Shown here: positions 9,310 to 60,669 of the stretch, in pieces | Numbering within the stretch: position 1 is the stretch's first letter | How the letters are laid out: each line of letters starts with the position of its first letter | IMG/VR virus record: IMGVR_UViG_3300021400_002728 | Span: 37,154-101,153 of that record | Reading direction: 5' to 3' (one strand) | DNA from: a virus | Taxonomy: Duplodnaviria > Heunggongvirae > Uroviricota > Caudoviricetes | Length of the DNA: 64,000 nt | Made by a program: the position numbers and the translations under genes | The notes under the pieces: generated by a model | The model's input: only the letters and a program-made list of their open reading frames with translations | Databases searched by the model: none | Told to the model about the DNA's origin: nothing

Positions 9310-9322
9310 TTAAATAGCTCTT
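9310..9322 (-). promoter_or_regulatory. Conserved element 2 (minus-strand reading AAGAGCTATTTAAT) directly after the serpin stop codon
   Basis: One of 4 intergenic copies (9310, 14944, 27340, 60657), all within 0-6 nt after a stop codon; no sigma70 -10 at proper spacing. Confidence 0.3.
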
Positions 9323-9323
9323 A

Positions 9324-10712
9324 TCACAGACTATTAATTTTGCCAATGAATAGACATTCATGTGCCTCTGTATCATAGATCATAAATACAAATGGACGAT
9401 CAAGAATAATCTCATGTACTTCTGTATCTCTAACAGGTGCAGCACTCTTCTCAAGAGTAATAGCTGTTACTGCTGCAGCTTCTGTGCCTTCAGGATTAAC
9501 ATCTACATAAGTCATCTGAATAACATCTGATACAGAAAGTGGTGTATCACTAAGATATTCCAAATAATCAGTATTGCCAGATCTAAATGCAGGTGCTAAA
9601 CCATTGTTATAAAGTGCATTGAAAAGATGATTCTCATCAGAAATCTTAAACTGAGGAATACCAATATTTACTTCATATCCATGAACTGGATTAGAAAGCA
9701 TATCATCTATATCAAGATCATTTACTGCAAAATTAGCGTTTTCCTTAGGAAGAATACCAATAAATACGAGATTTGAGTCTTCATAAGGCTTCATAAAACC
9801 TTCACACCAATTACTTTCATAATAAGTAGTATAACCATAATCGTACATCATAGTAACAGTAGAAGTAGATCCATCTGCATTAGTAAATACTGCTTCTCTA
9901 CAATTATGATCATCGAATGGATTTGCCCAAGTACCAGAGAAATAAAGTGCATTAATAAGTAAACCATCATTCAATCTCAATACTTCAGGTGATATAATAG
10001 AAGGAATACATCCATCTGTTGCTCCATCACACCAAGAATTGATAATTTCTGCACTTGTTGCATCACTAAAATCAAGTGACTGTACTCTTCCATTGTAATA
10101 TGCACTAAGTACATCTACATATGCTGGTGCAGGAGTAACTCCAGTATTAAACCATGCAGAATTTGCTATTGACATACGACTATTAAGATCATCAAACAGA
10201 TAACGTGAAATAAGTGCATTATTTCTTGATCTAATTCTAAGAAAATCATTAGGATAATTACATCCATTAAGATAATTGATTAATGCGTTATATGATTCTG
10301 TATTATCTCCAGCACCTTCAAGCAAAAGAGAAAGAGCCATATTCAAACTTGTTTCACTAAGAATAGTATTCTCATTAACATTATCAGATTCATGTTCTAC
10401 ATAATCAAGAACTGTAGTAATATTATTCAGTGAATAGTCACTGTCAAAATCATACTCAGTATTAACAATGAAGTCATCAGAATCCTCAATTAGTCTAAAT
10501 CTCTGATCTGAATCATCGTGCTTGCTAATTTTGGTATCATTTTCTGTTGAGTCAATTTTGCTTGGATTGTCATCAGTTACATCTACAATACTTACATTAT
10601 TAAGTGGATGATCTGTAGGTATGTCTGGAGTAACTCGAGTATCACCACATCCAGTGAATACTGTTATAACCATTGCTGCACAGAGTGCAATTGACAAAAT
10701 ACGCTTTTTCAT
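9324..10712 (-). CDS. Serpin (serine protease inhibitor), secreted lipoprotein
   Basis: Signal peptide + lipobox (VFTGC); serpin motifs NALYFSGTWANPF, reactive-centre-loop hinge NPEGTEAAAVTA, C-terminal DRPFVFMIYD. Confidence 0.85.
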   Translation of the reverse strand: MKKRILSIALCAAMVITVFTGCGDTRVTPDIPTDHPLNNVSIVDVTDDNPSKIDSTENDTKISKHDDSDQRFRLIEDSDDFIVNTEYDFDSDYSLNNITTVLDYVEHESDNVNENTILSETSLNMALSLLLEGAGDNTESYNALINYLNGCNYPNDFLRIRSRNNALISRYLFDDLNSRMSIANSAWFNTGVTPAPAYVDVLSAYYNGRVQSLDFSDATSAEIINSWCDGATDGCIPSIISPEVLRLNDGLLINALYFSGTWANPFDDHNCREAVFTNADGSTSTVTMMYDYGYTTYYESNWCEGFMKPYEDSNLVFIGILPKENANFAVNDLDIDDMLSNPVHGYEVNIGIPQFKISDENHLFNALYNNGLAPAFRSGNTDYLEYLSDTPLSVSDVIQMTYVDVNPEGTEAAAVTAITLEKSAAPVRDTEVHEIILDRPFVFMIYDTEAHECLFIGKINSL

Positions 10713-10735
10713 AAATATCTCCTTTGGTTAACTAG

Positions 10736-11446
10736 TTACAATAAATTTTTATAATCACACCAATTAGGTGGATTTAATGGAGGAATAACAAGAGGAAAAC
10801 CATTGATATCTGAAATTTCATCAATGATATCCATATCTTTATTTGGAACTTCTACACCACAGGCAAGCTTAGCAATACGATCAACATATTCATTACCTTT
10901 TATATCAGTATGCCCATATACGTGTCTAAAAGAAATACGATAATCTTGATTACGAAGTTTATCTACAAAATTAGCATAACATTGTGTATAAGTCTTTTTA
11001 GCTGACCATACTTTATCTGCCCAATTAGCAATACCTTCATAATCGTAATAAATTATGATATCCTTATATTGTTTAATTCTAAGATATTTAAGTGTTTCAT
11101 AAGCAGCTCGAACTTCTCCTTCTACATTTCGACCTCCTTCTGTCATCTTAAATCTACCACAAATAATCTTTTTCTTATCACCATGCATTAAAAAAGAAGC
11201 ATATCCACAGGTTTCTTCAGAAGGATTATAACTACCATCTACATATACTATAATAGCATCAGGATTGGTTATGTCTGGTTTAACATGAGTTCTATTCATA
11301 TATGCTTCTGCATCTGTTGCACTAGTAAAAGATTTATATTCAGCACAAGGAAAGTGTTTGATCTGAGCTTCACATTCAAACCAACTAGTATATATTCCTG
11401 GTACTTTTCCAACTCTTACTGCATAAAATTTAGCCATATTTACCAA
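10736..11446 (-). CDS. rnhA: Ribonuclease H1 with N-terminal hybrid-binding domain (HBD)
   Basis: N-terminal KFYAVRVGKVPGIYTSWFECEAQIKHFPCAEYKSFTSATDAEAY (RNase H1 HBD pattern) followed by RNase H catalytic core (VYVDGSY..., EGEVRAAYETL, YYDYEGIANW). Confidence 0.75.
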   Translation of the reverse strand: MVNMAKFYAVRVGKVPGIYTSWFECEAQIKHFPCAEYKSFTSATDAEAYMNRTHVKPDITNPDAIIVYVDGSYNPSEETCGYASFLMHGDKKKIICGRFKMTEGGRNVEGEVRAAYETLKYLRIKQYKDIIIYYDYEGIANWADKVWSAKKTYTQCYANFVDKLRNQDYRISFRHVYGHTDIKGNEYVDRIAKLACGVEVPNKDMDIIDEISDINGFPLVIPPLNPPNWCDYKNLL

Positions 11447-11904
11447 TATTCCTTATTATCTTTAGATGTAATGAGATAATACTTATCTTCATCGGCTTGA
11501 TCTGAAAGTACAGAATTGATTACAAGATCTCCAGCTTCAAATACTGTTATAGTATATAGATCTGAAACCTTCTTAAACTCAGTTGAAAGAATTGACTCAC
11601 ACTTACTCTTAATATCATGTATAGTATAATTGTCATCAATTTCTTTTATTGCTGAAATGATTGGAGTAACTGTCACAGACTTAAGTGTACAGTTTACGAA
11701 TGTTAAAGTAATATCAGCATAATCTATACCATAGAATTCGTCATTAATAGTAATTGTCGCTTCGCCTCTTTTATTAGGTGTAGAAAAAGCTATAGTTTTA
11801 TTTGCAAAAATAGAATATGCTTTATCATAAGGAGTAATATCAATTTCAAGTTCTTCTTCTTTTTTATTTACTTCAAAAATAATTTTATTATTATGAATTT
11901 TCAT
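11440..11904 (-). CDS. Hypothetical protein
   Basis: ORF track; operon context. Confidence 0.5.
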   Translation of the reverse strand: MKIHNNKIIFEVNKKEEELEIDITPYDKAYSIFANKTIAFSTPNKRGEATITINDEFYGIDYADITLTFVNCTLKSVTVTPIISAIKEIDDNYTIHDIKSKCESILSTEFKKVSDLYTITVFEAGDLVINSVLSDQADEDKYYLITSKDNKEYW

Positions 11905-11918
11905 TAGTTTAATCCCTC

Positions 11919-12530: not shown

Positions 12531-12561
12531 TTATTTTTTTCTCCTTTAATATTAGTTGTAA

Positions 12562-13104: not shown

Positions 13105-13147
13105 GTTATCTACCTCCAATAGATTAGTTATCAGTAACTATAGAGAT

Positions 13148-13183: not shown

Positions 13184-13215
13184 TTTACAGATTTTCATTA
13201 TATTCACACTTGGTA

Positions 13216-13434: not shown

Positions 13435-13459
13435 ATCTATTACCTCCAAATATATTTAT

Positions 13460-14547: not shown

Positions 14548-14568
14548 TATTTATCACCTATAAAAAAT

Positions 14569-14598
14569 AACGGATAGATATGTTGCAATCTACCCGTT
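14569..14598 (-). terminator. Hairpin (AACGGATAGAT/ATCTACCCGTT, one G-U) followed by UUUUUUAU on minus-strand RNA; intrinsic terminator after 14623..14874
   Basis: Seen in sequence. Confidence 0.55.
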
Positions 14599-14622
14599 AC
14601 TTTCTTAATACTTTGTTAATTT

Positions 14623-14874
14623 TTACCATAAGTTCTTACATACATTTACAATCCACTGTCCGATTGCTAAGAAACTTGGCATGGTAATTCCGAAAATACC
14701 AAGAAGTAATCCAATAAGCAAATATCCAATTACTATTCTAACGCAATCAATAACTTTCTTTTTGAGCGCAACCTTCATAATAAGACAAATAATTACAAGG
14801 ATTACCATATTAGTTGGCATTGATATTGCAAATGCTAAAAGATTGTTCAATAATGTACTTACTATACCTTCCAT
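14623..14874 (-). CDS. Small two-TM membrane protein
   Basis: ORF track; two hydrophobic helices; preceded ~70 nt upstream by conserved element 2. Confidence 0.5.
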   Translation of the reverse strand: MEGIVSTLLNNLLAFAISMPTNMVILVIICLIMKVALKKKVIDCVRIVIGYLLIGLLLGIFGITMPSFLAIGQWIVNVCKNLW

Positions 14875-14943
14875 CTTTATACTCTCCTTTATATTGTATA
14901 TTTATCAAAACTTAGTATTTTTCACATTCATACTATGTTATAA

Positions 14944-14956
14944 TTAAATAGCTCTT
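14944..14956 (-). promoter_or_regulatory. Conserved element 2 (AAGAGCTATTTAAT) overlapping the stop codon of the GT-C-like gene
   Basis: See element-2 family. Confidence 0.3.
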
Positions 14957-18515: not shown

Positions 18516-19554
18516 ATACCTTTAGAGGAATTTTGCTCATCCAAATAGTATTGTCATTCATAAGTGCTCTATACTTCTTAGCATCGTCTGAAGTGAAATA
18601 ACCTTCATCAGTGTATTCATATTCACGATTACGATTATCTCTCATAAAACTCTTATAAAAACGATCAATTTGTTCTGCGAGTTTTTCCTCGTTTTCTTTT
18701 GAATAATCAAGTTGCAAATACTTCTTAGAAGCCGAATTTCCAGGACAAATGAGATAACCTTTATTGATAGTAGTATTAAGCTCATTTTCCATAGCCCACT
18801 TATACAAAATCATTGATCCAAGGTAACCATCAAATGTTACAGCTTCTTCAGTAGGATGACCTGTCTTATAGTCAAGAATGATAACATCATCTCCTCTATA
18901 ATCTACACGGTCAGCAACATATGATACTGCACAAGGAACGGTATAACCAATAGATTTAGCATAAAGATTTTCAGCTCTTCCTCTATGCTCAGTTACACAC
19001 TTAAGAGTTTTCTCATCAAGTTCTGATCTTGGATGAAGATAATCCTTAATGTCATAATAACCAGTAATATATTCATCAAGTTTAGTTTTGTCCATATCAG
19101 GATTTGATTCTAATACAGTCTTTTCAAGTTCCCAGAGTTTATCTCTATTTCTCTCTTCACCGGGAAGAAGATAATAATCTTCAAGAACTTTATGAAATGC
19201 TGTACCAATTGCAGTAGCATCATTTGCGCCTTCTTCAAAGAAATTCTGCATAAGACTAAGTGCAGGATTGCTTCTATAACCTTTCATAAATGAAGGTGAA
19301 AAATAATCTCCACTATATCGATTCAACAAGGACTGCAGGTTAGACCCGTAGCCCTTGTAAATAGCGAGATTGCGTGTTTTATGTTTATTATTATATGCCT
19401 TGATTATTTTTGCAACGGCTTCCTCAACATCTGCAAAAAGTGCTTTAGCATCCATAGTGCTATTATCAATCTTGGCAATGTAAGTGACTAAATAGTCCTT
19501 ACCATTTTCAGTAATGATTTCCATGTCAATCTCCTTAATACCTATCGAAAGCAA
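18484..19554 (-). CDS. PD-(D/E)XK nuclease, Cas4/RecB-like exonuclease family
   Basis: VIILDYKTGHPTEE (D-Y-K-T-G motif typical of RecB-family nuclease core). Confidence 0.55.
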   Translation of the reverse strand: MLSIGIKEIDMEIITENGKDYLVTYIAKIDNSTMDAKALFADVEEAVAKIIKAYNNKHKTRNLAIYKGYGSNLQSLLNRYSGDYFSPSFMKGYRSNPALSLMQNFFEEGANDATAIGTAFHKVLEDYYLLPGEERNRDKLWELEKTVLESNPDMDKTKLDEYITGYYDIKDYLHPRSELDEKTLKCVTEHRGRAENLYAKSIGYTVPCAVSYVADRVDYRGDDVIILDYKTGHPTEEAVTFDGYLGSMILYKWAMENELNTTINKGYLICPGNSASKKYLQLDYSKENEEKLAEQIDRFYKSFMRDNRNREYEYTDEGYFTSDDAKKYRALMNDNTIWMSKIPLKVYVGEHDESCL

Positions 19555-20506
19555 TTCTAGTTTTCATACTATTTGCTTCGAATGAGTCTGCCAAAAGCAA
19601 CTTTGTGAATGTAGTAGTGCTAGGCTTATAGATAAATGCACCAAGTAAATCAGGCTGTCTAAGGAATGATGTCTGAAGTGCAGAGAACTGTCCATCTCTC
19701 CATCTAGAAAGAAGTGCAATTTCATAAAATCTAGATTCAACACCTACATTTCCAATATTATCAATAATTTCCTGTATTTTTTCCTTAGCTGTTAAAATAT
19801 CCTTAACATCAGGAATCTTCTGCTCAAGTGTAACATTAACCTTTTCTGCAGTACCCTTATTCATAGAGTCAAGTGATGCTTGAGTGGCGTGCTCAGTAAT
19901 CATAAGTGTTGAATAAATACCAATATTCTTAGGTGTAAATTCAGTATCGTATGATCTTCTGTACATACCCGCACACTTCTTACAGAAATGTCTAATACCA
20001 TGATTACATGAGAGGAATGTTCTTACGTGGATCTTTCCTCTCTTAGGAATATCCTTATAATCCTCAACGTATTTACCAAGTTCCATTACCCAGTGATTGC
20101 GAACCTTGTAATTGAAAGTATCTTCATCAATAGGTAACTTCATTTCAGTTCCTTCACTTCCACAATCATCAATCTCAATAGTCATATCATCACATGAACT
20201 AATGAGTTTCTTGTAGAAGTAACCTGATTCTGTAATATCAGTTATATTAGCTGCAATAACTGACTGCATGAATTTCTTTGATTCCTGTTCAGAATAGTTA
20301 TTGTTACGTCTTGCAACTGACTTCTTAATATCATCAGTATTCTTTGTAAAAGAAGTGATCTTTTCGATCTTATCCATTGCTTTCTGATCATTATCAATAA
20401 ACGCAGAAGCAAAGTCACTAACTGTAGGTACCACACAGTGTTCAAACATTGCTGAACCTAATTTGTGATACTTTTCAACGTACTCTTTTCTTGTTAATGT
20501 CTCCAT
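19535..20506 (-). CDS. Multisubunit RNA polymerase beta-prime, C-terminal fragment (bridge-helix region)
   Basis: STLMITEHATQASLDSMNKGTAEK aligns with beta-prime bridge helix [22 protein letters not shown]; immediately downstream of beta-prime N fragment. Confidence 0.6.
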   Translation of the reverse strand: METLTRKEYVEKYHKLGSAMFEHCVVPTVSDFASAFIDNDQKAMDKIEKITSFTKNTDDIKKSVARRNNNYSEQESKKFMQSVIAANITDITESGYFYKKLISSCDDMTIEIDDCGSEGTEMKLPIDEDTFNYKVRNHWVMELGKYVEDYKDIPKRGKIHVRTFLSCNHGIRHFCKKCAGMYRRSYDTEFTPKNIGIYSTLMITEHATQASLDSMNKGTAEKVNVTLEQKIPDVKDILTAKEKIQEIIDNIGNVGVESRFYEIALLSRWRDGQFSALQTSFLRQPDLLGAFIYKPSTTTFTKLLLADSFEANSMKTRIAFDRY

Positions 20507-20931
20507 TATTTCTTCTCCTCAAGAATAATATTTGTTCCATCGTCATACTGTAAAGTTAACGTTGTGTCTTCAATTAACATATTTACATGAGTTTCGGTCT
20601 TAACTCCAGTAGTAGTATCTTCATCAGTGAAGGTAGCACTAAAGTTATTCTCTATATCATCTTTAATTTCTTCATATGTTCCAGACTGAACAACTCGATC
20701 TTCACCAGCATCTACAGCAACATCAACTTTATTGTTACTGTAGATTTCAACTGCGACAGTAAACTGCCCATAGTCTTTGGTGTAGATTTTACTAGTTGGT
20801 TTGGTGAGAAGGATGATAGTGAGAACAATAAGACCTACAATCATAACACCAAAGAAAATTAATGAAGGTGTGTCAATACTACCATTCTTTTTCTTCTTAG
20901 GCTTTGGTTTAGTCTCTTTTTTCTCTTCCAT
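20506..20931 (-). CDS. Hypothetical single-pass membrane protein inside the RNAP operon
   Basis: Lys-rich N-terminus then TM helix LIFFGVMIVGLIVLTIILL; acidic C-terminal domain. Confidence 0.5.
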   Translation of the reverse strand: MEEKKETKPKPKKKKNGSIDTPSLIFFGVMIVGLIVLTIILLTKPTSKIYTKDYGQFTVAVEIYSNNKVDVAVDAGEDRVVQSGTYEEIKDDIENNFSATFTDEDTTTGVKTETHVNMLIEDTTLTLQYDDGTNIILEEKK

Positions 20932-20937
20932 TTTTTT

Positions 20938-22173
20938 TTACACCTCTTCACCAATCAATGTTGCAACATATTCGAATTCTTCGAGAATACCATTTCTGAT
21001 ACTAGAGTTAGAACCTTCGATGTAGTTATTACTTGCAAGAAGTTTCTTAGCTTCCTCACAGGCTTCTTTAGAGTAAAGAGCAATAACATTAAGTGAGTCA
21101 CCATCAACGTCGGCAGCAAGTCCATCATATACAATAGGGTTTGCCTGAATAACAAACTGCTCCTGTTCTAACTTAGAAAATACAGGTTTCATAGCGATAA
21201 TTGACTTAGCACCAATGGTAGGCTGACGGTTAAACAATACTAAGTAATCTTCATCAGCTAATTCCTGATTGATTCCATCAATATCAGTATACCCATTCTC
21301 ATCTGTATACTTAGCAAACAGACGAGGATAAAGTGTAGGAATGAAGTAATATCCAATCTTAAGAGTATCTTCGTCAAGACTAAAGTTATTAGTCATAACC
21401 GCACGGATCATTCCAGTTTCAGACTGACCCTTAAGTTCGGCATCAATAATATTACGCTTATTCTTTGCAAGGATCTGGAATAACTCATGATAGAGTTTAT
21501 CAAGCTCTCTACAAACAATGAAACGAAGATTGATCTCATTGAAGATAGTAAGCTTACTATTCTTCTGAAGAGATTCATATCTATTGTTCTGACGAAGCAT
21601 ATTGATGTAGATAGTATTCAGATTACCGATAAAATATTTATCACCCTGGAAAGTAATCTGTCTGAATGAAGTATGAGGAATACTGATATTTCTGTGTACA
21701 TTCTCATTGTACCAAGATTCAGAAACTCCGATACTCATCAATGCGTCCTTACCAATCAGAATCTTCTTCTCATCATACTTAGAGAAGTCTGCCTTAAGGT
21801 CGAATTCTACGTATTCACCTTCATAAAGGAAACCTCTACTATTGAGAAGATTATCGATCATGGTCTTATCATAAGCACCATAGTTGATAACTCTGTTAGG
21901 AAGGTCGAAGTTAAACTTTATATAGAAGTTTGGAATGTTTCTCTTGTTGAGAACTCTGCAGTTACACTTAGGACAAATTCCAGGTTTTGTCTGCTCACCG
22001 CAATAACATTTACCAAACTTACCAAAAATCTTTTCAGAGAAAATTCCATCTTCATGAAAGAGGTAACGATCACCATCCTTAATCTTTCTAGCCTGAAAAA
22101 GCTTTTCAGACGTTACCTGATTCATAGGATTCTCTGTAATATGTACTGGTCTAATCGTCGCTTTCATCGGCAT
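20938..22173 (-). CDS. Multisubunit RNA polymerase beta-prime, N-terminal fragment (zinc finger + catalytic NADFDGD-like loop)
   Basis: CYCGEQTKPGICPKCNCRV (cf. [23 protein letters not shown]); LFNRQPTIGAKSIIAMKP (cf. LNRAPTLHRLGIQAFEP); AADVDGDSLNV (cf. NADFDGDQMAV). Confidence 0.85.
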   Translation of the reverse strand: MPMKATIRPVHITENPMNQVTSEKLFQARKIKDGDRYLFHEDGIFSEKIFGKFGKCYCGEQTKPGICPKCNCRVLNKRNIPNFYIKFNFDLPNRVINYGAYDKTMIDNLLNSRGFLYEGEYVEFDLKADFSKYDEKKILIGKDALMSIGVSESWYNENVHRNISIPHTSFRQITFQGDKYFIGNLNTIYINMLRQNNRYESLQKNSKLTIFNEINLRFIVCRELDKLYHELFQILAKNKRNIIDAELKGQSETGMIRAVMTNNFSLDEDTLKIGYYFIPTLYPRLFAKYTDENGYTDIDGINQELADEDYLVLFNRQPTIGAKSIIAMKPVFSKLEQEQFVIQANPIVYDGLAADVDGDSLNVIALYSKEACEEAKKLLASNNYIEGSNSSIRNGILEEFEYVATLIGEEV

Positions 22174-24403
22174 TGTTGTTTTTCTCCTTTTTGATTATAC
22201 TATTGAAGTTTTCCTCATCAAACTGATCATATACTGCCTCATCGGTAGTATCAATATCATCGATCTCATCTTCAAGAGTGAGTACATATCCAATAGACTT
22301 AAGAATTTCAATGAACTGCATTGAAAGCTTAGGATTCTTAGGAAGAGTACGTGTCTCTTCAATATCAGATACAAGTTTGTGAGAACCTACATACTTGGTA
22401 ATGGATCTAATACCAAGTTCCTTAAGGATAGCAGGACAATCATTAGCTACAAGATTAAGTTTCTCCATCTCACCGAAACGAAGAGTTCTTGTATAACCAT
22501 GATCTGCAGATGAACAACTAATCTTAGTTGATGCGTGGTGATACAATCTCATAATATGATTGATACCAACAGGAATGACGTTCTTGATTCCCTTATACTC
22601 AACAATAGAGTTCTTAGAATAAGTAGCCATCTGTTTCTTATACTTCTCAATCATAATTGAGATGTAGTCTTTATCTTCAAAATCAATTCCTGACGCTCTT
22701 GCCCAAGCTTCGAAGATCTGACCCAATGAACCACGTCTCATAGTTGAGAAACCTGAAATGATAACTTCCAGAGGACCTGCTTCCATATTACCAACTTTCT
22801 TTGTAAGTCTAGGCATCTGATCATCAGGAAGAATAAGACCTACAGTACCTTTAGCACCATGAAGATTGGTAATCTTATCACCAAGTCTAAAAGGAATTTC
22901 CCAATTAATAAATACACGAACATTGTTTACGTCAACATCATCAATCTTAGAAATTCTGACGTTCTCATAACCAAGTAATATTGCGAAGTTCTTAGTAGGG
23001 AATACGATCTGAAGTGTATCAGTATCAATCTCATTAGTAGTATCATAGATTTCCTTAAGTGCGAGGAATGTCTTAGACTTCTTATTGAGATATAAGATAG
23101 TTGAATCGTATGTTCTAAGTCTCTTTGCAAAAGATTCAGAAATAACGATTGAGTCTGCAGAAGTATAACCTTCAAGATCAGTAAAACCAACTCTGGCCTC
23201 AATACGATGAGTAATATCGTCAATTTCATCTGCAAGAGGCACTGCCTGTGACGTCATTTTCGCGTTCATCATGATTCTCTTAGGCTTATCATTATTACAG
23301 AAAGGAGATTCAGACAAACATGAAAGACGTTTTGCCTGAGGCATATCAACGTACTCATACATGTTATGCATTTCACCTTTATCATCGATAACCCAAAGTA
23401 ATCCGTCCTTAACGACTACATTATCAAGCAACAGTCTCTGACGACCTGCAGCTTTAGATGTAACAGTCTTGAACGAATCAAAGAATCCGTTTGTATCTTT
23501 GTATGTGAATGCTGGCTGGAAAGATCCGCCGCTGTTATAGATGTTTGCGCAAGTTCTGAAGTTTTCGAGTGCGAAAATCTTACTTTCAGAACGAACAAGA
23601 CAGCCTTCAAGATGTTCGCCAAGATCATTGTATCTCTTACTCTTACTTACAATGATTGTGTTTACACCTAAGAGAATTCCCTTAGTAGGCTGTGCGTATT
23701 TTCCAGACTTAAGAACTGCATCTTCGAAGTATTCAAGTCTAGAAAACTTGTAATTAAAAATACTATCTGAGTCGAACATAGGAAGCTTACGAAGTGCCTT
23801 AACAAAGTTTTCCTGAGTTAAAGGCTCGCCTAAAGAGGTCTCAAGTAACATTCTTGATCTAGGCTTAAGATGATTCGTAAAGATTTCTTCGATGGTAGGT
23901 TCAAATTTGAACTCTTCTTTAGTAACTACACATTCGAATTTGTCTTTAGTAATATCATACTTCCAACCTTCACCTCTAACAGTTTCATAATCGACCTTAC
24001 CTACACAATTGTAATAGTCTTTAACTGCAGTAACACGAGTCACATAATGTGATCTGTTAATAATCCAGCAAAGATCAATGGAAGGCGTAGGCATTGCTCC
24101 GATAAGGAGTGTCTTACCGCTGTAATCTCCATAAATATCAATACACATATTATGGAAATTCAACTTCAGCTTATAACTATTAGGTGTCTGTTTGTCGGCT
24201 TCTGCATTAAGAAACCCTAAATTGAGATTTTGTGCCAGCTTACATGGCTCTTTGGTGTTCCAGAAGCGTTCGCAGTCTTTATCGATTCCAGCTTGAATCT
24301 TTGCGAAATCATCTTCCTCATTGATTGGACTCACACCAAGAAACTTTTGATTTGCCTGCGTCCAATATGCAAGCTCATTCTTGTACAATTCCTGGATAGT
24401 CAT
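22151..24403 (-). CDS. Multisubunit RNA polymerase beta subunit, compact (750 aa)
   Basis: WIINRSHYVTRV (cf. FVINGTERVIV); NNDKPKRIMMNAKMTSQAVPL (cf. HNDANRALMGANMQRQAVP); LHGAKGTV (GRHGNKGV); MRRGSLGQIFE (SRMNIGQILE); RFGEMEKLNLVA (RFGEMEVWALEA). Confidence 0.9.
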   Translation of the reverse strand: MTIQELYKNELAYWTQANQKFLGVSPINEEDDFAKIQAGIDKDCERFWNTKEPCKLAQNLNLGFLNAEADKQTPNSYKLKLNFHNMCIDIYGDYSGKTLLIGAMPTPSIDLCWIINRSHYVTRVTAVKDYYNCVGKVDYETVRGEGWKYDITKDKFECVVTKEEFKFEPTIEEIFTNHLKPRSRMLLETSLGEPLTQENFVKALRKLPMFDSDSIFNYKFSRLEYFEDAVLKSGKYAQPTKGILLGVNTIIVSKSKRYNDLGEHLEGCLVRSESKIFALENFRTCANIYNSGGSFQPAFTYKDTNGFFDSFKTVTSKAAGRQRLLLDNVVVKDGLLWVIDDKGEMHNMYEYVDMPQAKRLSCLSESPFCNNDKPKRIMMNAKMTSQAVPLADEIDDITHRIEARVGFTDLEGYTSADSIVISESFAKRLRTYDSTILYLNKKSKTFLALKEIYDTTNEIDTDTLQIVFPTKNFAILLGYENVRISKIDDVDVNNVRVFINWEIPFRLGDKITNLHGAKGTVGLILPDDQMPRLTKKVGNMEAGPLEVIISGFSTMRRGSLGQIFEAWARASGIDFEDKDYISIMIEKYKKQMATYSKNSIVEYKGIKNVIPVGINHIMRLYHHASTKISCSSADHGYTRTLRFGEMEKLNLVANDCPAILKELGIRSITKYVGSHKLVSDIEETRTLPKNPKLSMQFIEILKSIGYVLTLEDEIDDIDTTDEAVYDQFDEENFNSIIKKEKNNNADESDD

Positions 24404-24494
24404 TCGCTCTGTCCTTTCATATTTGATTTTGGAATGTATATTAAAATACGGATAGTGGTGTCTCTTATAATTATATCTTACGATTTAATTTGAA

Positions 24495-26240: not shown

Positions 26241-27254
26241 TTAGACACCAAACTTACGTTTAATGCTATCTACATCAAATGAAATATTTCTCTCTTTCTT
26301 AATTTGAGCCTTAGCTATTTCTGTAAGCATCTTAAGTGAAAGAGTATTATCTTTTCCTTCTATCCATTTATATAAGATTTGTTTTAGATCACTTATATGA
26401 ATGAGTTTTGTATGACATGAATACCATTCATCATCTCTTATAATTTCTACTGGAATATCACCTACAATACATACATATCCATCAATAGATTCTAGTGGAA
26501 TACCTGCATTAGCCATTACTTTACTCCAAATATGAGTAGATGGATGAACTTCAATAATTTCTTTACCTTTATCTGCGTCCATTACTACTCCATTAGAAAT
26601 CATTAATGTTTGACCATTTTTAACTTTAAGATTTTTAGCATCTACTACTAGAAGATGATTACCATATACTAATAATGTATCAGTATCAGGAATATAATCT
26701 TTTTCAGGTTTTACTTGTGGTTCATCAACACTTAAAGCATATTCTCTAATGACTTCACTAGGAGACATAATCTCAATGGTTAATTCATTTCCAAAATAAT
26801 CATCTGGGTTAACGTGAATTTTCATTCCGTTTGTATAGTAAAGGATTACCTCGTCACCAACCTTTTCAGCTTTACTAAAGTTGGCATTTGCTAATGAATT
26901 AACAAAACTAGCTTGACTAGTATCTTCAAACTTATATGCAAGACTAGCGAAAGCCACTAAACCATTAAGTTTGTCGTCATGTTTAATTAGTCGAGCTAAA
27001 TATTCACAGAGTTTTTCTTCACCTTCAATTCCAGCTTTAGTTTTAGAAATTTGAGCTTCAAGTTCAGGATCTTTCATCTCCCAATCTGTTTTACCAAATT
27101 CTCTACTATCTCGCTGTTCTTCAAGCTGCGCCAATGTTTGTCTTAAGCCCTCACCAGGATCTCCAATTACTCTATTACCTGCAACTAAATAGTTACGTAC
27201 ATTAATAGCTAATTGTTTATCCTCTTGGCGTATGCCGTTCTGATCTAGCTTCAT
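26241..27254 (-). CDS. Hypothetical protein, possible NERD-like nuclease-related domain
   Basis: GEEKLCEYLARL...GNHLLVVDAKN resembles NERD/PD-(D/E)XK pattern; weak. Confidence 0.35.
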   Translation of the reverse strand: MKLDQNGIRQEDKQLAINVRNYLVAGNRVIGDPGEGLRQTLAQLEEQRDSREFGKTDWEMKDPELEAQISKTKAGIEGEEKLCEYLARLIKHDDKLNGLVAFASLAYKFEDTSQASFVNSLANANFSKAEKVGDEVILYYTNGMKIHVNPDDYFGNELTIEIMSPSEVIREYALSVDEPQVKPEKDYIPDTDTLLVYGNHLLVVDAKNLKVKNGQTLMISNGVVMDADKGKEIIEVHPSTHIWSKVMANAGIPLESIDGYVCIVGDIPVEIIRDDEWYSCHTKLIHISDLKQILYKWIEGKDNTLSLKMLTEIAKAQIKKERNISFDVDSIKRKFGV

Positions 27255-27339
27255 AGTACATCTCCTTATAACTTACAAATAAGAATGTAATTGATCTAAA
27301 CAATCAACTACATCCTTTTGCTTCTATAAACTTATAGAA

Positions 27340-27352
27340 TTAAATAGCTCTT
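27340..27352 (-). promoter_or_regulatory. Conserved element 2 (AAGAGCTATTTAAT) 6 nt after stop of 27359..28132
   Basis: See element-2 family. Confidence 0.3.
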
Positions 27353-27358
27353 CGCTAA

Positions 27359-28132
27359 TTATCTGGATGTAAGTTCATTGAGTTTAAGCTGAAGCTGACT
27401 AATCTGACTAAAGGCAGAATCCATAAGATTAAGCAAATTATTAAGCTGAGAATTAAGCTCATCAAATTCGTCTTTATCTACTAAAACCTTGATATGTGTA
27501 TGGCCTTCAGCGTCAGTCATAACTAATTGAGAATAATTACTACTCTGAGATCTTGCTACAACCGTATTAAGTGGTTTAGGCTCTTCAGAAACCTTAGTAG
27601 GTTTAACTGCCTTAGCTCTTTCAACCTTAGGTTTTGCAACTTTAGGTTTATCTGTAGTAGGTTTCTTTTCATACTCGTACTTAGCAAACTTAGACTTACC
27701 TATTCTAAGAACATCACACATCTTAGCATAAGCATCTTCATTCATTTTACCAGTTTTGACACAGGCACCCACATAATTATAAGTATATCCCATCTTTGTA
27801 CTAAGTGTCTCCATGGACATCCTGATCTCTTTCAGATATGCCCTAAATGGATTCACTCTAAACTTTACTGTAGTATTAGTATTAGCTACCTTTGTACCTG
27901 TATGATACATATTATGTTCATCATCTACAGTAAGAATGGTTTCATCTGTGCCTAACATATTACACATAGTCTTATATGCATCTGCAGCCATTTTACCATT
28001 CTGCATACTAGTAAATAAATAACTGTCTGAATATCCAAGCATTTTAGACATAGCACTCATACTATATCCATTAAGCTCTAGATATTCCTTGACCTTAGTA
28101 GTATCTATATTAACGTACGTATAGGTTTCCAC
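27359..28132 (-). CDS. Putative DNA-binding protein with two tandem HTH-like repeats and C-terminal coiled coil
   Basis: Internal duplication (..YLELNGYSMSAMSKMLGYSDSYL..GKMAADAYKTMCNMLG / ..ETLSTKMGYTYNYVGACVKTGKMNEDAYAKMCDVLR). Confidence 0.4.
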   Translation of the reverse strand: METYTYVNIDTTKVKEYLELNGYSMSAMSKMLGYSDSYLFTSMQNGKMAADAYKTMCNMLGTDETILTVDDEHNMYHTGTKVANTNTTVKFRVNPFRAYLKEIRMSMETLSTKMGYTYNYVGACVKTGKMNEDAYAKMCDVLRIGKSKFAKYEYEKKPTTDKPKVAKPKVERAKAVKPTKVSEEPKPLNTVVARSQSSNYSQLVMTDAEGHTHIKVLVDKDEFDELNSQLNNLLNLMDSAFSQISQLQLKLNELTSR

Positions 28133-28145
28133 TAAGTTTCCCTCC

Positions 28146-29162: not shown

Positions 29163-29215
29163 TATTGTTTCCTCATAAAAATAAACTACATTACAAATAG
29201 GCAAAGACCAAGCCC

Positions 29216-34249: not shown

Positions 34250-34253
34250 ATTA

Positions 34254-35174: not shown

Positions 35175-35183
35175 TTGATCTCC

Positions 35184-43117: not shown

Positions 43118-44335
43118 TTACTTCTCATTAGTAAGTCTCCAGTTGATACATCTCTTAAGATACTCAACATATTCAGGATTCTTGCACATTCCCTTGCCTT
43201 CAACATCAGAGATTTTAGCAACATCCATACCGTTACAAGCAGTAGTCTTCATTACGATATTGAGAGGTTCTACATCTGTATCGTTAGCGATGTAAGTACC
43301 AATACCGAATGCAACCTTTGCCTTTCCATTAAAGTGTCTTACAATCTTATCTGCCTTTTCGAAGTTAAGGCTATCAGAGAAGAGAAGTGTCTTGGTCTTA
43401 GGATCAATACCAAGTTTCTGATAGTGAGCGATCATCTTCTCACCCCATTCGATAGGATCACCAGAGTCATGACGAACACCACTAAAGAGAGTAGAGAATG
43501 TAAGATCAAAATCTCTAAGGAAACAATCAGTAGTGATTGCATCAGTAAGAGCAGTTCCGTTAAGTACTCCGTATTCCTTAACCCATGCGCTAAGCGCGTA
43601 GTAGTTAGAGTATGCCGGATTATGCTTATGATCTCCCTGACCTACACACATGATCCACTCGTGGGCCATGGTACCGACAGGCTTTACACCGAACTTCTTA
43701 GCAAGATATACATTAGAAGTTCCAACGAAGTGGCTTGCACTGTGCATTGTATCATTGAGGTGACTGAACTTCTGAATTGCAAGTTCCTGTGCCTCAGCAG
43801 AAAGTCTACGTCTAAGACCGAATTCAGAGAATACTCCAAGGTACCACTTACCGTGTTTTACATTCTCGAATTTCTCATCAAGACGTCTCTTAAAACTCTC
43901 AATGAGCTGATCATAATCGTAATTCATTCTGAAGTAAACTTCATTTACGATTGCGAGAGTAGGGATCTCATACATAGAAGTATTCAACCAAGTTCCCTTA
44001 GTTTCGATTGCAAGTCCACAATCAGCATCAGTAGTGATCTCGAAATCTTCAAATCTAGGCTTCCAGATTCTAAGGAAATCGATGTAGCTGCCCTTGAACC
44101 AAGGAATATTATCAAGATATTCAAGCTCATCTTCTTCAAATCGAAGATTACAATAAGCTTTGATCTGGTCCTTGATCTCCTGAACCATTTCCGGAGTGAA
44201 CTTTACGTCTTTATTTCTACATTTGAATGTCCAAGTAGTCTTATAGGATGGGAACTGATGGTAGATGGCCTGGCCCATAGAAAACTTGTAAAGATCAGTT
44301 TCGAGTAGACTTACGATAATTGGATTGAGTTTCAT
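43118..44335 (-). CDS. pncB: Nicotinate phosphoribosyltransferase
   Basis: N-terminus MKLNPIIVSLLETDLYKFSMGQAIYHQFP matches NAPRTase family start (TDxYKxTM); 405 aa. Confidence 0.8.
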   Translation of the reverse strand: MKLNPIIVSLLETDLYKFSMGQAIYHQFPSYKTTWTFKCRNKDVKFTPEMVQEIKDQIKAYCNLRFEEDELEYLDNIPWFKGSYIDFLRIWKPRFEDFEITTDADCGLAIETKGTWLNTSMYEIPTLAIVNEVYFRMNYDYDQLIESFKRRLDEKFENVKHGKWYLGVFSEFGLRRRLSAEAQELAIQKFSHLNDTMHSASHFVGTSNVYLAKKFGVKPVGTMAHEWIMCVGQGDHKHNPAYSNYYALSAWVKEYGVLNGTALTDAITTDCFLRDFDLTFSTLFSGVRHDSGDPIEWGEKMIAHYQKLGIDPKTKTLLFSDSLNFEKADKIVRHFNGKAKVAFGIGTYIANDTDVEPLNIVMKTTACNGMDVAKISDVEGKGMCKNPEYVEYLKRCINWRLTNEK

Positions 44336-54068: not shown

Positions 54069-54635
54069 TCACTTTTTCTTAATAAATCCTGGTTCTATGG
54101 TATCATAGATTTGATCCAGAATTTTATAAGCATTTGTGTTTTTCTCACTAACTGTTGCTTCATAATCTACATCATAGATCGTATCTGCACGAATACCATA
54201 TGTCCATGTGGACTTTCCAGTAAACATACTACAATTTAGTGCATTCACTCTATTAAATATAAATAGCTCTTCATTATGCATGTAGATTATTCGGTCATAA
54301 AAATTGTTAGGCAAAAATAATTTCTCATTAACTGTAGTTTTAATCACTCCAGTTAGTTCTCGTAGACCTATAACCATATGATCAGCATGATAACCTTCTA
54401 TGTTGATGATATGGTACTTTTTACCTTTTTCTTTATCACCGACAATATAAACATGGATTTGTTTGGATACGATCACGATAAACTTTGGATCAAAGAAATA
54501 TTTCAAGAATGGATATTCAGGATGTCCTTTAGGTCCATATTTACGTTCATCTGATATTATATGAGCAGCTCTAAATAACTTTTCAGCCTTTGGATTGATA
54601 CTAAGAACCGCCTCTGTCACATCTTGAGCTGTCAT
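54069..54635 (-). CDS. Hypothetical protein
   Basis: ORF track. Confidence 0.5.
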   Translation of the reverse strand: MTAQDVTEAVLSINPKAEKLFRAAHIISDERKYGPKGHPEYPFLKYFFDPKFIVIVSKQIHVYIVGDKEKGKKYHIINIEGYHADHMVIGLRELTGVIKTTVNEKLFLPNNFYDRIIYMHNEELFIFNRVNALNCSMFTGKSTWTYGIRADTIYDVDYEATVSEKNTNAYKILDQIYDTIEPGFIKKK

Positions 54636-55636: not shown

Positions 55637-55639
55637 ATA

Positions 55640-57549: not shown

Positions 57550-57592
57550 TTTTCTTTTACTCCTTTAATTTTATATCTTACAATTTATATTG

Positions 57593-57916
57593 TTACCCGA
57601 TTCCAAAGTTACTAGCGTGCGTTAACTCAGGCGGGGTATCAATCTTTTCATAACCGCACTTTTGTTCATTCCACTTATAAACAACTCTAGCTAAGTCTAC
57701 GGTTAAAATACCCGGTTCCATTTCCTCGATAATGGCATAATCATAAATACCATCTCTCATGTCGCTGAAGTTGTTCTCTACTGCGCAGTTAGCTTCATCA
57801 AAACAGTCAAACCAGCCCACACATCTACGTTCACCAAAATCGTAGATATGCTGACTGGCTAGAGAAGTGTTATGACTGATTTTCTGAAACACCGTCACGG
57901 TATAGATTCTCTCCAT
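57593..57916 (-). CDS. Hypothetical protein, GC-richer; overlaps end of upstream gene by 47 nt with its SD (AAAGGAG) inside that gene
   Basis: ORF track plus SD check. Confidence 0.4.
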   Translation of the reverse strand: MERIYTVTVFQKISHNTSLASQHIYDFGERRCVGWFDCFDEANCAVENNFSDMRDGIYDYAIIEEMEPGILTVDLARVVYKWNEQKCGYEKIDTPPELTHASNFGIG

Positions 57917-58403
57917 CCTCTCTAACTCCTTTCAGTTTATTTTCAGCGTTTTTACTAATAAGGACGTTAGAAAGAATATTCACAATTCGGTGAGCTTCAT
58001 CCAACTTTGATTTCATGTTATTGGCTACTGCACTCTGAATCATTGCTACAACTTGCTTATCCATTGACTCAATTACTGCCTGATTGCTTCGAACTGCCTG
58101 GGTTCCTGCTGTGCCGTTAAATATATCGGCCTGTGCACCTTTCGATAATGCTATTGCACATTCTTGCATAAGCAGTGACATGTCCTTGCGTTCAGCAAAG
58201 TAATATAACTCAACAGAGAGCTGCAGCATATAATCCTGCAACTCCTTATTAGTCAAAGTAGTTAAATTTTTCTTGATCTTGTCAATAATAGAGTCGATCT
58301 CTTTTGTATTTCTGTCAACAGTTTCCTTTACAATTGGCTTAAGCGCGTTGTAGACTTCTGATACTTCCTTTTTCGCAGCATTTACCTTGTTAATATCTAC
58401 CAT
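57870..58403 (-). CDS. Hypothetical coiled-coil protein
   Basis: ORF track. Confidence 0.5.
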   Translation of the reverse strand: MVDINKVNAAKKEVSEVYNALKPIVKETVDRNTKEIDSIIDKIKKNLTTLTNKELQDYMLQLSVELYYFAERKDMSLLMQECAIALSKGAQADIFNGTAGTQAVRSNQAVIESMDKQVVAMIQSAVANNMKSKLDEAHRIVNILSNVLISKNAENKLKGVREDGENLYRDGVSENQS

Positions 58404-58900
58404 TACATACTCCTTACATTTTCCTCTTTCGAGGGCTTATTATATCTTACATTTTGAAATTCAGAAAACTGAATAACATTCTGATCATTATGAGACCTAA
58501 ATGAATTAGAAATTTCCATCATTCTTTTAAAGTTCTCGTCTCTACGCTGTTGTTTTTTAGCAAGTTCTTTCATTTCTCTTTTGTACTCAGCATACGTAGC
58601 AGCATTCTTAAGTCCATACCAATTAAAATCCCAGATACACCAAATATGCTCATGTGCTTTTACTAGATACTTAACTGTAAACATTTCACTAAGCATTGAT
58701 GATACTAATAAACCTAAGCAAACTATACAGCCGATAAATGAATTATTTCCATAAGGTTCTGGTGCATCAACTCCAGAAGCACAGAAAACAAATCCAATAA
58801 GGCCTATTGCCAAGCTTACAATCTTAAAAAATGAAAGTACAACAACTGTGTTACTTCTAACTTTTGTTAAAAATTCCTTTGTAAAAACCTGTTCCAACAT
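58403..58900 (-). CDS. Hypothetical two-TM membrane protein
   Basis: ORF track. Confidence 0.5.
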   Translation of the reverse strand: MLEQVFTKEFLTKVRSNTVVVLSFFKIVSLAIGLIGFVFCASGVDAPEPYGNNSFIGCIVCLGLLVSSMLSEMFTVKYLVKAHEHIWCIWDFNWYGLKNAATYAEYKREMKELAKKQQRRDENFKRMMEISNSFRSHNDQNVIQFSEFQNVRYNKPSKEENVRSM

Positions 58901-58930
58901 GATAAATACCTCCTTAATATTTATAGTTAT

Positions 58931-58966
58931 ATTATATCAAGGAGGTATTAAATTGTAAATAGTTTT
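58931..58966 (-). promoter_or_regulatory. Promoter P-r: AAAACTATTTACA -N17- TGaTATAAT; spacer contains AATACCTCCTT complementary to downstream SD AAGGAGGTATT
   Basis: Family member. Confidence 0.6.
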
Positions 58967-58988
58967 ATATTAAAAACTAACAAAATTA

Positions 58989-59915: not shown

Positions 59916-59991
59916 AATTTCTCCTTTATGTAACGAATGTTTTGCAATTTATATTCAAACGGACTTATTTCCGTAGAATATTCAATAAAAA

Positions 59992-60022
59992 TTGGAGCTA
60001 TATAATGACTATATAACTCCAA
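59992..60022 (-). terminator. Hairpin TTGGAG-cTATATA...TATATAa-CTCCAA followed by UUUUUAUU on minus RNA; terminator 6 nt after stop of 60029..60616
   Basis: Seen in sequence. Confidence 0.55.
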
Positions 60023-60028
60023 CTTAAA

Positions 60029-60616
60029 TTACTTAGATGATTTCTTGCTAGAAGACTTCTTAGTTGTAGATGACTTCTTAGATGTAGACTTGCTAGCAGT
60101 AGATTTACTTGCAGACTTAGAAGTAGACTTGCTAGAAGACTTCTTTGCAGGTGCCTTTTTAGGTGTTGCTGCGGTCTCTGTAGCAGGATTAACTGTCTTT
60201 TTCTTGACAGTAGACTTAGTACGAGGGAAAACTTCCATAATCAACTTCATATCTTCCTGATATACTTTATTGCCAAACACATACTTAAGAGCTGCGATAG
60301 CAAGACCTTTCTCATAATCAAATACATCATCTGGACCGCATTTAGCAGTAGTCTTTGTTCCATCTTTCCAGAAGATAACAACTGCGGAATCCTGACAAAT
60401 TACATTGTCAATGAAATCTGTAAGCTTAGGCTCATAATGTTTAGATTTGCAACATGCAGAACATTCCTTAGCAGTCTCAGCCACTTTCTTAGCAGTCTTC
60501 TCAGCGGTTTTGCCTACAGTCTTTCCTACCTGAACTACTCGTACAGGAACACCAGAAAGCATACTCACCAGACTGCCAATTGCTTCATTGAACATTTCTT
60601 CTTCTCTTTTAGACAT
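60029..60616 (-). CDS. Hypothetical protein with Lys/Ser-rich low-complexity C-terminal tail (start moved to MSKREEEMF)
   Basis: Track start overlaps upstream lipoprotein gene; tail ...KKAPAKKSSSKSTSKSASKSTASKSTSKKSSTTKKSSSKKSSK. Confidence 0.5.
   Translation of the reverse strand: MSKREEEMFNEAIGSLVSMLSGVPVRVVQVGKTVGKTAEKTAKKVAETAKECSACCKSKHYEPKLTDFIDNVICQDSAVVIFWKDGTKTTAKCGPDDVFDYEKGLAIAALKYVFGNKVYQEDMKLIMEVFPRTKSTVKKKTVNPATETAATPKKAPAKKSSSKSTSKSASKSTASKSTSKKSSTTKKSSSKKSSK
60045..60170. repeat. Low-complexity tandem repeats (AGACTTGCTAGAAGACTTCTT-like units) encoding the K/S-rich tail of 60029..60616
   Basis: Seen in sequence. Confidence 0.5.
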
Positions 60617-60656
60617 TTTCGTACCTCTTTTCTTAAAGATTTGAACATCTGTATAA

Positions 60657-60669
60657 TTAAATAGCTCTT
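60657..60669 (-). promoter_or_regulatory. Conserved element 2 (AAGAGCTATTTAAT) 2 nt after stop of 60672..60944, about 45 nt upstream of ATG at 60616
   Basis: See element-2 family. Confidence 0.3.

Follow-up and report, generated by a model that had tools for sequence, protein, structure and literature searches.

In jumbo phages, the virion RNA polymerases use extended and highly conserved AT-rich promoters, with transcription starting 6 nt downstream, as in the AR9 promoter AAATATATATTAT-(6N)-G+1, and the promoters of the non-virion polymerases of phiKZ and AR9 are short, poorly conserved and hard to predict (PMC5312081, PMC7598289). The present study concerns a short recurrent element in a stretch of 64,000 nt (hereafter the window; positions 37,154 to 101,153 of the IMG/VR virus record IMGVR_UViG_3300021400_002728, Caudoviricetes) that is part of an uncultivated jumbo phage, since no close phage was found in GenBank and the beta-like RNA polymerase subunit encoded in the window is only remotely of the phiKZ type. 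The element comprises 21 nt, AARRGCTATTTAAT-WATA-NN-R on the gene strand, and is longer than the 13-mer that a first-pass annotation, made from the sequence alone, had noted as a second conserved motif besides that of the main promoters. Its existence, extent, conservation, linkage to the downstream gene and position are established. The element is probably a promoter of some kind, and there is a nearly even chance that it is a compact internal promoter of ~21 nt with a clade-specific reader, most likely the phage polymerase, where initiation, start and reader are all deduced from the features described below.

The exact 14-mer AAGAGCTATTTAAT that forms the first part of the element (the motif) occurs four times in the 64-kb window against 0.01 expected copies, and none of 100 shuffled sequences reached four; at up to two mismatches, nine matches were found against 2.7 expected. 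All four copies are intergenic and share the minus strand with all genes of the window. When the intergenic sequence was surveyed for 10-mers, the main promoter and this second motif were the only recurrent words of at least 10 nt, if strings belonging to ribosome-binding sites (RBSs) and -10 boxes are set aside. The second conserved element is therefore real and above chance in a motif enumeration, and its four intergenic sites were correctly located by the first-pass annotation except that they were given as 13-mers, one base off at the low end (table 1). Copy 1 lies 2 nt past the stop codon of a DUF6440 gene and 39 nt before the ATG (60616) of a gene with a K/S-rich tail, copy 2 lies 6 nt past the stop of an HTH-like gene (27359-28132) and 84 nt before the ATG (27254) of a 337-aa gene, copy 3 overlaps the stop of a 467-aa gene by 1 nt (a distance of -1) and lies 68 nt before the ATG (14874) of a gene for an 83-aa membrane-like protein, and copy 4 lies 1 nt past the stop of the serpin gene and 71 nt before the likely TTG start (9237) of FtsH. 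The placement immediately after stop codons was thus accurately described, as were the downstream genes (FtsH, the small membrane protein before the GGDEF gene and the K/S-rich protein), with the exception of a "NERD-like" gene (26241-27254): searches of Pfam and PHROGs gave no family for the 337-aa gene. A terminator-like hairpin separates the 83-aa gene from the GGDEF gene behind it.

A TATA sequence is present within 0-2 nt after all four copies, and the pattern CTATTTAAT-N0-3-TATA has four matches in the window against 0.15 expected. The window and six related contigs (seven contigs) together gave 22 sites, which were aligned in fixed register. Positions 1-14 read AARRGCTATTTAAT with positions 6-14 invariant and positions 1-5 nearly so, where most of the 22 sites had been gathered with a pattern that fixes the core and the independent evidence for the core comes from orthologous sites found by synteny. 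Positions 15-18 are W-A-T-A, position 21 (7 nt after the motif) is an A in 17 and a purine in 20 of the 22 sites, and no information is found beyond this position. The register of the TATA varies in 4 of 22 sites. Positions 12-17 read AATWAT (AAT-TAT or AAT-AAT, with A2 and T6) in fixed register in 18 of 22 sites.

Relatives of the phage were found by pattern and protein scans, in which exact patterns miss degenerate copies, and contigs from IMG/VR were used only if they carried several copies or homologous genes (single 14-mer or 18-mer matches in other contigs, with an estimated 10-70 chance matches, were unused). The relatives comprise a 332-kb contig with 70-88% DNA identity to the window (relA), a 28.9-kb contig (relB), two pig-gut-type contigs (relC), a 467-kb contig with a 67% identical beta'-N polymerase subunit (relD), two further contigs with 69-70% beta'-N identity and one motif copy each, and a more distant group of contigs at 41-48% identity. 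The sequence read amounts to about one third of relA and short stretches of the remaining relatives. The core GCTATTTAAT is kept in six of seven orthologous comparisons (the seventh reads ACTATTTAAT) and the flanking intergenic DNA diverges. At the K/S-rich gene, four lineages keep (A)AAG(A/G)GCTATTTAAT(T/A)ATA and the spacer down to the RBS diverges; orthologues of this copy were identified in relA (L068), relB (L144/L141), a further contig (L145) and relC (L146/L147, with an AAGGG variant and a different upstream gene). Copy 2 has an exact orthologue behind an unrelated upstream gene in relB (L133) and one with an AAGTG variant in its 5' part in relA (L333:4433), whereas the relA orthologue of copy 3 is degenerate (AATGACTATTTAAT + AATAAT). 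Copy 4 corresponds to AAAGGCTATTTAAT in relA, where the leader is almost the same but FtsH is deleted (window 7432-9237 compared with L117:17430-17535), leaving the motif, the leader hairpin, the RBS and the last ~12 codons. The relB and relC contigs have another gene upstream but retain the motif and the downstream gene. The motif consequently travels with the downstream gene and not with the 3' end of the upstream gene, and a terminator or other 3' end signal of the upstream gene was rejected since the motif is not consistently paired and stays with the downstream gene.

Beyond these orthologues, relA contains six further sites elsewhere (five exact and one AAAAG variant) and relD contains three copies. 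The ten copies in relA are located at 1.9, 7.4, 163, 171, 197, 210, 216, 224, 283, and 303 kb, and a complete scan of this contig for the exact 18-mer found none between 11 and 163 kb, so that the copies are confined to one arc of ~180 kb that carries replication and accessory genes and the remaining ~150 kb are without an exact copy. All copies of the family that have a TATA, at most two mismatches and a location between genes or at a gene edge are found on the gene strand.

The precise switches in gene content raise the question of a protein-binding or recombination site without promoter activity, either an operator (e.g., for the HTH-like proteins encoded at 27359-29204) or a boundary of cassette exchange. 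Gene content of the relatives changes exactly at the motif (the upstream genes in relB and relC, the presence of FtsH downstream), and one relA site (L123) has two GCTATTTA units 17 nt apart. Such a function has only a slight chance of being correct: no other promoter is near enough to the four window copies for an operator to act, the site is asymmetric and non-palindromic, the end-points of the FtsH deletion in relA are not at motif copies, 14-21 nt is short for homologous exchange, and units of promoter plus gene that move together explain the mosaic boundaries equally well. The first-pass annotation had also listed a fifth copy at the C-terminus of FtsH, but this is a one-mismatch sequence within the FtsH reading frame that is not followed by TATA. 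A near-copy within another open reading frame (ORF) of the window (table 1) and one in a relative (L048:6617) are likewise in frame, and since all of these in-ORF near-copies encode E-E-L-F and lack TATA, they are coding coincidences. An interpretation of the FtsH near-copy as a functional site or a recombination scar was rejected for its E-E-L-F coding and because the relA deletion ends elsewhere.

Table 1. Features of the window that are discussed in the text.
Feature	Position	Strand	Sequence or remark
Element copy 1	60649..60669 (14-mer 60656-60669)	minus	AAGAGCTATTTAAT + TATACA + G
Element copy 2	27332..27352 (14-mer 27339-27352)	minus	AAGAGCTATTTAAT + TCTATA + A
Element copy 3	14936..14956 (14-mer 14943-14956)	minus	AAGAGCTATTTAAT + TATAAC + A
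Element copy 4	9302..9322 (14-mer 9309-9322)	minus	AAGAGCTATTTAAT + AATATA + A
195-aa gene with K/S-rich tail, downstream of copy 1	60029..60616	minus	
337-aa gene, downstream of copy 2	26241..27254	minus	
83-aa gene with membrane-like product, downstream of copy 3	14623..14874	minus	
FtsH-like gene, downstream of copy 4	7432..9237	minus	AAA + Peptidase_M41
Leader hairpin after copy 2	27281..27317	minus	15-bp stem; relB keeps the stem with the loop replaced
Weak 6-bp hairpin after copy 3	14913..14935	minus	TAGTAT…ATACTA + GTTTTG
Leader hairpin after copy 4	9266..9300	minus	AAGAGAACTAGTATTC…GAATGCTAGCTCTCTT, then T-run; conserved in relA
Excluded look-alike in FtsH	7438..7451	minus	AAGAGCTATTTAAG; one mismatch, FtsH frame (…E-I-E-E-L-F-K-E-stop), no TATA after
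Excluded look-alike in ORF 54069-54635	54258..54271	minus	AAGAGCTATTTATA; encodes E-E-L-F
Beta-like RNA polymerase subunit	22151-24403	minus	
Beta'-N subunit	20938-22173	minus	catalytic AADVDGD
Beta'-C-like subunit	19535-20506	minus	

The main promoters of the window have the form AAACTATTTACA-N17-TATAAT, frequently with a TG extension, and 14-16 copies were found by word and pattern in the intergenic DNA. The second element differs from these in several respects. Among the sites tabulated none has a TG extension, the hexamer that starts at TATA does not end in T in 12 of the 15 sites that were tabulated first (the scanned main promoters read TATAAT), and consensus promoter scans found no -35/-10 pair at 9.3, 14.9 or 27.3 kb. 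With TATA or AATWAT as the -10 box, the four window copies have only one to three of six matching bases in the corresponding -35 hexamer, and only the relA site L123 has a TTTACA 17 nt upstream of TATAAT. A standard sigma-A promoter was rejected on these grounds (no -35 at the right spacing, no TG extension, and a TATA hexamer mostly without its final T), although AATWAT, in another fixed register, offers a weaker -10-like hexamer. The motif itself was also considered as a -35 element and rejected: no conserved -10 was found 16-18 nt after TTTAAT, and the start codon lies 23 nt from the motif end at a NUDIX gene in relA (L125) and 29 nt from it at L331, in each case with an RBS in between, which leaves no room for such a promoter. 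The annotation was accordingly correct that no -10 box is found at 17 nt, but a -10-like AATWAT/TATA box abuts the motif.

A weak constitutive "-10 only" promoter of host sigma-A that needs no special factor, with the 14-nt identity being the result of recent duplication or common descent, would account for the AATWAT and TATAAT-like boxes. The L123 site, where the perfect TTTACA is placed exactly 17 nt upstream of TATAAT and the motif forms the spacer, fits this explanation, as does a bona fide main-type promoter before the gyrA-like gene (4364-4372, minus strand) in which CTATTTAAT is the -35 region (AAAACTATTTAAT-N17-TATAAT). The latter also means that the CTATTTAAT 9-mer alone is not diagnostic of the second class. 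Nevertheless, this is the least probable of the explanations considered, as eleven invariant bases are maintained upstream of the -10-like box across contigs with 67-70% identical polymerase while the neighbouring DNA diverges, sigma-A has no requirement for such upstream bases, and the window copies have neither a -35 nor a TG extension.

The similarity between the second motif and the main promoters was examined across the relatives. The CTATTTA core that the annotation had described as shared is common to both in the window, relA and relB. However, only one of nine listed main promoters keeps the CTA in relatives with 67-70% identical polymerase, where most read (A/G)TTTAC(A/T)-N17-TATAAT, and the main promoters of the 41-48% group have this form throughout, whereas the second motif keeps GCTATTTAAT down to 67% polymerase identity. 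The shared core is thus lineage-specific and, as the main promoters of distant relatives look like generic host sigma-A promoters and the second motif keeps GCTATTTAAT, the two signals are independent and the second is clade-specific. The proximity to stop codons, which the annotation had emphasized, is likewise not special to the motif because at least six main promoters start within -5 to +1 nt of the stop codon before them. A function linked to the stop codon was rejected for this reason and because the distance between stop and motif varies between orthologues; the adjacency reflects genome compaction, where a promoter without a preceding terminator packs against the upstream gene.

All four copies are located inside operons that are headed by main promoters (at 61040, 31473, 25109, and 13171 for copies 1-4, respectively), and they lie 1, 3, ~12, and 5 genes downstream of the main promoter without a terminator in between. 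This location would also suit a signal that acts at the RNA level within the operon transcript, either a nut-like site for loading a read-through complex or a cleavage site that leaves a protective 5' hairpin. A terminator-like hairpin follows within 10-35 nt at copy 4 and at the L123 and L136 sites of relatives, and GCUAUUUAA is one base off the boxA core of E. coli rrn and lambda, GCUCUUUAA, which is taken as a lead only. Such a signal is nevertheless improbable. In relD (L143) and relA (L123) the motif starts right after a strong, canonical intrinsic terminator, so that little upstream transcript would carry it, and copy 1 with its orthologues as well as L125, L129 and L331 have no terminator between the motif and the gene. 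Furthermore, the fixed-register W-A-T-A with the purine and the strong AT-richness are features of DNA melting, and the motif has no conserved structure: it is unpaired or inconsistently paired in the predicted folds, and no Rfam family matched anywhere in the window. The motif was also considered as an arm of a terminator hairpin, but pairs in this way only in a distant relative (L059) and not in the window. An antitermination site of the nut or qut type was rejected because several copies have no terminator, L143 and L123 follow one, and no conserved hairpin adjoins the motif.

The annotation had stated that no hairpin is adjacent to the motif; in fact, three of the four copies in the window are followed by terminator-like or leader hairpins at a distance of 8-22 nt (table 1). 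The hairpin after copy 4 has an alternative fold that sequesters the FtsH RBS and the hairpin after copy 2 begins 21 nt past the motif; both are conserved in relatives. The weak hairpin after copy 3 is replaced in relA by another stem (GTAAG…CTTAC). Main promoters, too, are followed by leader hairpins of this sort (in the gaps 940-1110 and 60945-61052), which counts against an RNA-level role of the motif as well, and leader hairpins are a general feature of the leaders of this phage that is not specific to the motif. Terminator-like hairpins stand directly before RBSs with no promoter in between at the GGDEF gene (14548-14622), FtsH and the 337-aa gene; together with those after main promoters, this suggests widespread 5' stabilizers or regulated read-through. 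As a separate observation, a strong terminator is present ~30-50 nt past the motif at L123:740-920 (7.3-7.5 kb of the relA contig) and L136:1869-1950. At L123 the motif is flanked on both sides by near-duplicate terminators. The layout at these two loci might serve to make a short non-coding transcript, or might represent a Q-like cassette or a terminator module that was duplicated. A Q-like antitermination cassette (promoter, short RNA and terminator) fits L123, L136 and partly copies 2 and 4, and was rejected as a general explanation since it does not fit the other copies.

The promoter interpretation is favoured by the conserved orthologous sites, the linkage to the downstream gene, the placement after terminators (where a promoter is expected and a read-through signal is not), the distance of 23-29 nt to the start codon, and the W-A-T-A with the purine. 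The element would act as a compact promoter, AARRGCTATTTAAT-WATA-NN-R, inside long operons that are headed by main promoters of the sigma-A type. Transcription would start a few bases past the motif, most plausibly at the conserved purine 7 nt behind it, and the downstream gene (FtsH and the genes for the 83-aa, 337-aa and K/S-rich proteins) would gain a second, separately timed source of transcript besides read-through. The genes served are accessory (FtsH, the membrane protein before GGDEF, the NUDIX enzyme, a ParA-like protein, a coiled-coil paralogue and the K/S-rich protein). Because of this and the absence of exact copies in the 150-kb arc of relA, the element probably belongs to an early or middle class, and a late class is unlikely.

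The 14-nt block would be read by a factor specific to the phage clade, most likely the split multisubunit RNA polymerase of the phage. The genes for this enzyme span 19535..24403 on the minus strand, and the beta-like protein is similar to phiKZ-type subunits with 24-44% tblastn identity over 10-28% of its length. Since the genes lie in an operon with a sigma-A-type main promoter, the polymerase is made after infection, acts after the earliest phase and needs promoters of its own; the position of this main promoter at the head of the operon argues for a non-virion enzyme. The assignment of the element to this polymerase is favoured because the anatomy of the element resembles the promoters of virion polymerases, and by this analogy it is the favoured candidate reader, at somewhat below even odds. 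The annotation had named a middle or late promoter class for a phage-encoded RNA polymerase as one candidate, besides a processing or anti-termination site and a regulator-binding site; the promoter is the best supported of these and a multisubunit polymerase is indeed encoded, and the distribution over the relA arc makes the late class unlikely.

Alternatively, the promoter might be read by the host core RNA polymerase together with a specificity factor encoded by a phage or mobile element. This factor could be a truncated sigma acting on an extended -10-like element in the manner of T4 gp55 and phiEco32 gp36, or an appropriator or activator similar to MotA-AsiA. AATWAT at positions 12-17 would be the -10 box and the 11 nt upstream the site of the factor. 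This explanation, which has roughly one chance in four, makes sense of the -10-like hexamer in fixed register, of the start that it would predict ~7 nt past AATWAT at the first bases of the leader hairpins (L048 and copies 3 and 4), and of the location of the copies inside early operons, which is like that of T4 middle promoters. It is weakened by the scan of ~60 of the 74 ORFs of the window (a fifth of the genome) with Pfam, which found no sigma-like or MotA-like protein, and by the position of the specific, non-palindromic block at about -23 to -13, where only MerR-type regulators or Q are known to bind.

A search for the exact 18-mer outside the phage clade bears on the same question. In GTDB, 107 matches, about as many as expected by chance, were scattered over 185,579 species genomes (596 Gb) from many phyla; most genomes with a match have one, two genomes have two on separate contigs, and no clustering within genomes was found outside one conjugative element, where the exact scan is insensitive to degenerate sites. 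A host regulon thus gained no support as an explanation, since only scattered matches at chance level were obtained with the exact 18-mer, a search that would miss degenerate sites. The one recurrent locus is a Tn916-like conjugative element in metagenome-assembled genomes of Lachnospiraceae/Clostridiales (L228:331, L290, L316:7424, and L321:1424). In this element the 18-mer AAGAGCTATTTAAT-TATA is located after a terminator and before a conserved hairpin, an RBS and a 110-aa gene, which is the first conjugation gene and is followed by the gene for an FtsK/TraG-like coupling protein. This may be a coincidence, a shared promoter type, or a hint that the host polymerase is able to use such a site when assisted by a factor from the element. 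The latter would support a reader built on the host core enzyme, as only the host polymerase and factors of the element are available there, but the match represents a single event among ~100 chance-level matches.

Several points weigh against the phage polymerase as the reader of a compact internal promoter. Promoter activity is deduced from sequence and the assignment to the polymerase is circumstantial: every carrier contig that was tested has the polymerase, but most of these contigs were found through the polymerase. A single set of polymerase genes is present in the window, and the non-virion promoters of phiKZ and AR9, being short and poorly conserved, are unlike this motif. The AATWAT at positions 12-17 also admits a sigma-like reader with the host core enzyme because it can be read in fixed register. 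Moreover, the copy number is low (~1 per 16-18 kb, with 10 copies in the 332 kb of relA) and for this reason the element cannot be the sole promoter class of a phage polymerase, the terminator-like hairpins 10-35 nt after several copies would stop transcripts unless the enzyme ignores them, and the identical 18-mer occupies a promoter-like position in the Clostridiales conjugative element in genomes without such a phage polymerase.

In a wider and more speculative interpretation, the element might be the promoter consensus of an uncharacterized lineage of multisubunit polymerases in jumbo phages of gut and rumen Firmicutes, with a hybrid programme in which host sigma-A transcribes the early genes, including those of the polymerase, and the phage enzyme then acts at a small number of near-invariant 21-nt promoters inside these operons. 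If so, this would be a non-virion jumbo-phage polymerase with promoters that can be predicted from the sequence, unlike those of phiKZ and AR9. A phage-polymerase promoter would also provide a template for reconstituting a divergent multisubunit RNA polymerase of uncultivated gut jumbo phages, and would indicate that such phages can combine host-dependent and self-encoded transcription. If the host polymerase with a phage factor reads the element, it is an ordinary promoter of the middle type. The motif is in addition a sequence tag for a regulatory class of accessory genes across the phage clade and can serve to recognize members of the clade in metagenomes.

All ORFs of any length in the window are on the minus strand, the G+C content is ~33%, and the RBSs are strong, as is typical of Firmicutes. 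Gene products comprise gyrase A and B, FtsH, a serpin, RNase H, a GGDEF enzyme, a Pnkp-like kinase-phosphatase-RNA ligase, PIF1 helicase, DnaB, primase, a RecA-like protein, NAD-salvage enzymes and the split multisubunit RNA polymerase. The set for salvage and synthesis of NAD (33524-35690 and 43118-44335) comprises NAPRTase, NAD synthase, an NMNAT-like cytidylyltransferase and an isochorismatase/nicotinamidase-like protein, and in relA the NUDIX gene that follows a motif copy (L125) comes in addition. Other genes are unusual in a phage (9324-10712, 31559-33450, 40795-42030, and 25187-26218), namely those for the serpin, two SPFH/Band-7 proteins, an L,D-transpeptidase (YkuD) and a leucine-rich-repeat protein of the BspA type.

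A third conserved motif, AAAT[C/T]GTAAGATATAA[A/T], was identified at 24471-24481, 57571-57581, 58440-58450, and 60718-60728 (minus strand) in the window and at L332:7709, L333:7699, L336:12658, and L059:1991 in relatives. Exact copies lie 20-70 nt before the starts of the beta-like polymerase gene, the RecA-like gene and the gene 57870-58403, and the fourth copy is inside the DUF6440 ORF. Both relA and relB retain the copy that precedes the polymerase genes, and the loci of two further relatives (L336 and L059) contain copies as well. Similar to the second motif, it consists of a specific ~11-mer followed by a TATAA box and may represent a third promoter class; at one mismatch, seven matches in the window compare with 5.1 expected, which is not above chance.

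Phage-specific promoter classes are already familiar, and this motif would add a further one; in the literature its sequence matched only unrelated primers. With the T7-type promoters (a ~13-nt binding region, TATA and a purine start) it shares the sequence of specificity block, TATA and purine, but the purine lies 3 nt further from the TATA, the register of which varies as described above. Unlike in T7, no single-subunit polymerase gene was found in the window by Pfam in ~60 of 74 ORFs, including every one that is large enough. The lambda nut and qut sites are comparable in their location inside an operon and, for some copies, ahead of a terminator-like hairpin, and the motif in L123 occupies the spacer between -35 and -10 like the lambda Q-binding element. 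Unlike nut and qut, however, it has no conserved boxB-like hairpin, many copies are without a terminator and some follow one, and there is no -35/-10 pair around the window copies.

The late promoters of T4 and the gp36 promoters of phiEco32 are read by the host core enzyme together with a phage factor. The T4 late promoter TATAAATA (gp55) and the phiEco32 gp36 promoters resemble the element in having a single extended -10-region element and no -35. The present element is longer (14 + 4 nt) with a 5' half that contains G/C, its copies are not before structural genes, and no such factor was identified. T4 middle promoters are similar in that a phage-specific element replaces the -35 and is joined to a -10-like box, and in that they lie inside early units where genes are expressed by read-through and from the internal promoter. 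The difference is in the spacing, as the MotA box is centred at -30 and 11-13 bp from the -10, whereas the block described here ends 0-2 nt from the TATA and overlaps AATWAT; furthermore, no homologue of MotA or AsiA was detected in the window.

The early promoters of the virion polymerases of AR9, phiKZ and phiR1-37 are unrelated in sequence to the element, and packaging of the enzyme is known for those phages, whereas here the polymerase is known from its genes alone and the start is predicted. The polymerase is only remotely similar to the phiKZ-type subunits and, unlike phiKZ and AR9, this phage has many promoters of the sigma-A type, one of them ahead of the polymerase genes, and is not equally independent of its host. 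In their anatomy, however, these promoters are alike: each consists of one uninterrupted AT-rich stretch of 13-18 nt, nearly the same in every copy and located directly upstream of the start, which is published as 6 nt after the motif and would correspond here to the conserved purine 7 nt after it. In both cases there are tens of copies per genome, a split multisubunit polymerase is encoded, and the promoters are detectable by bioinformatic means (PMC5312081, PMC7598289).

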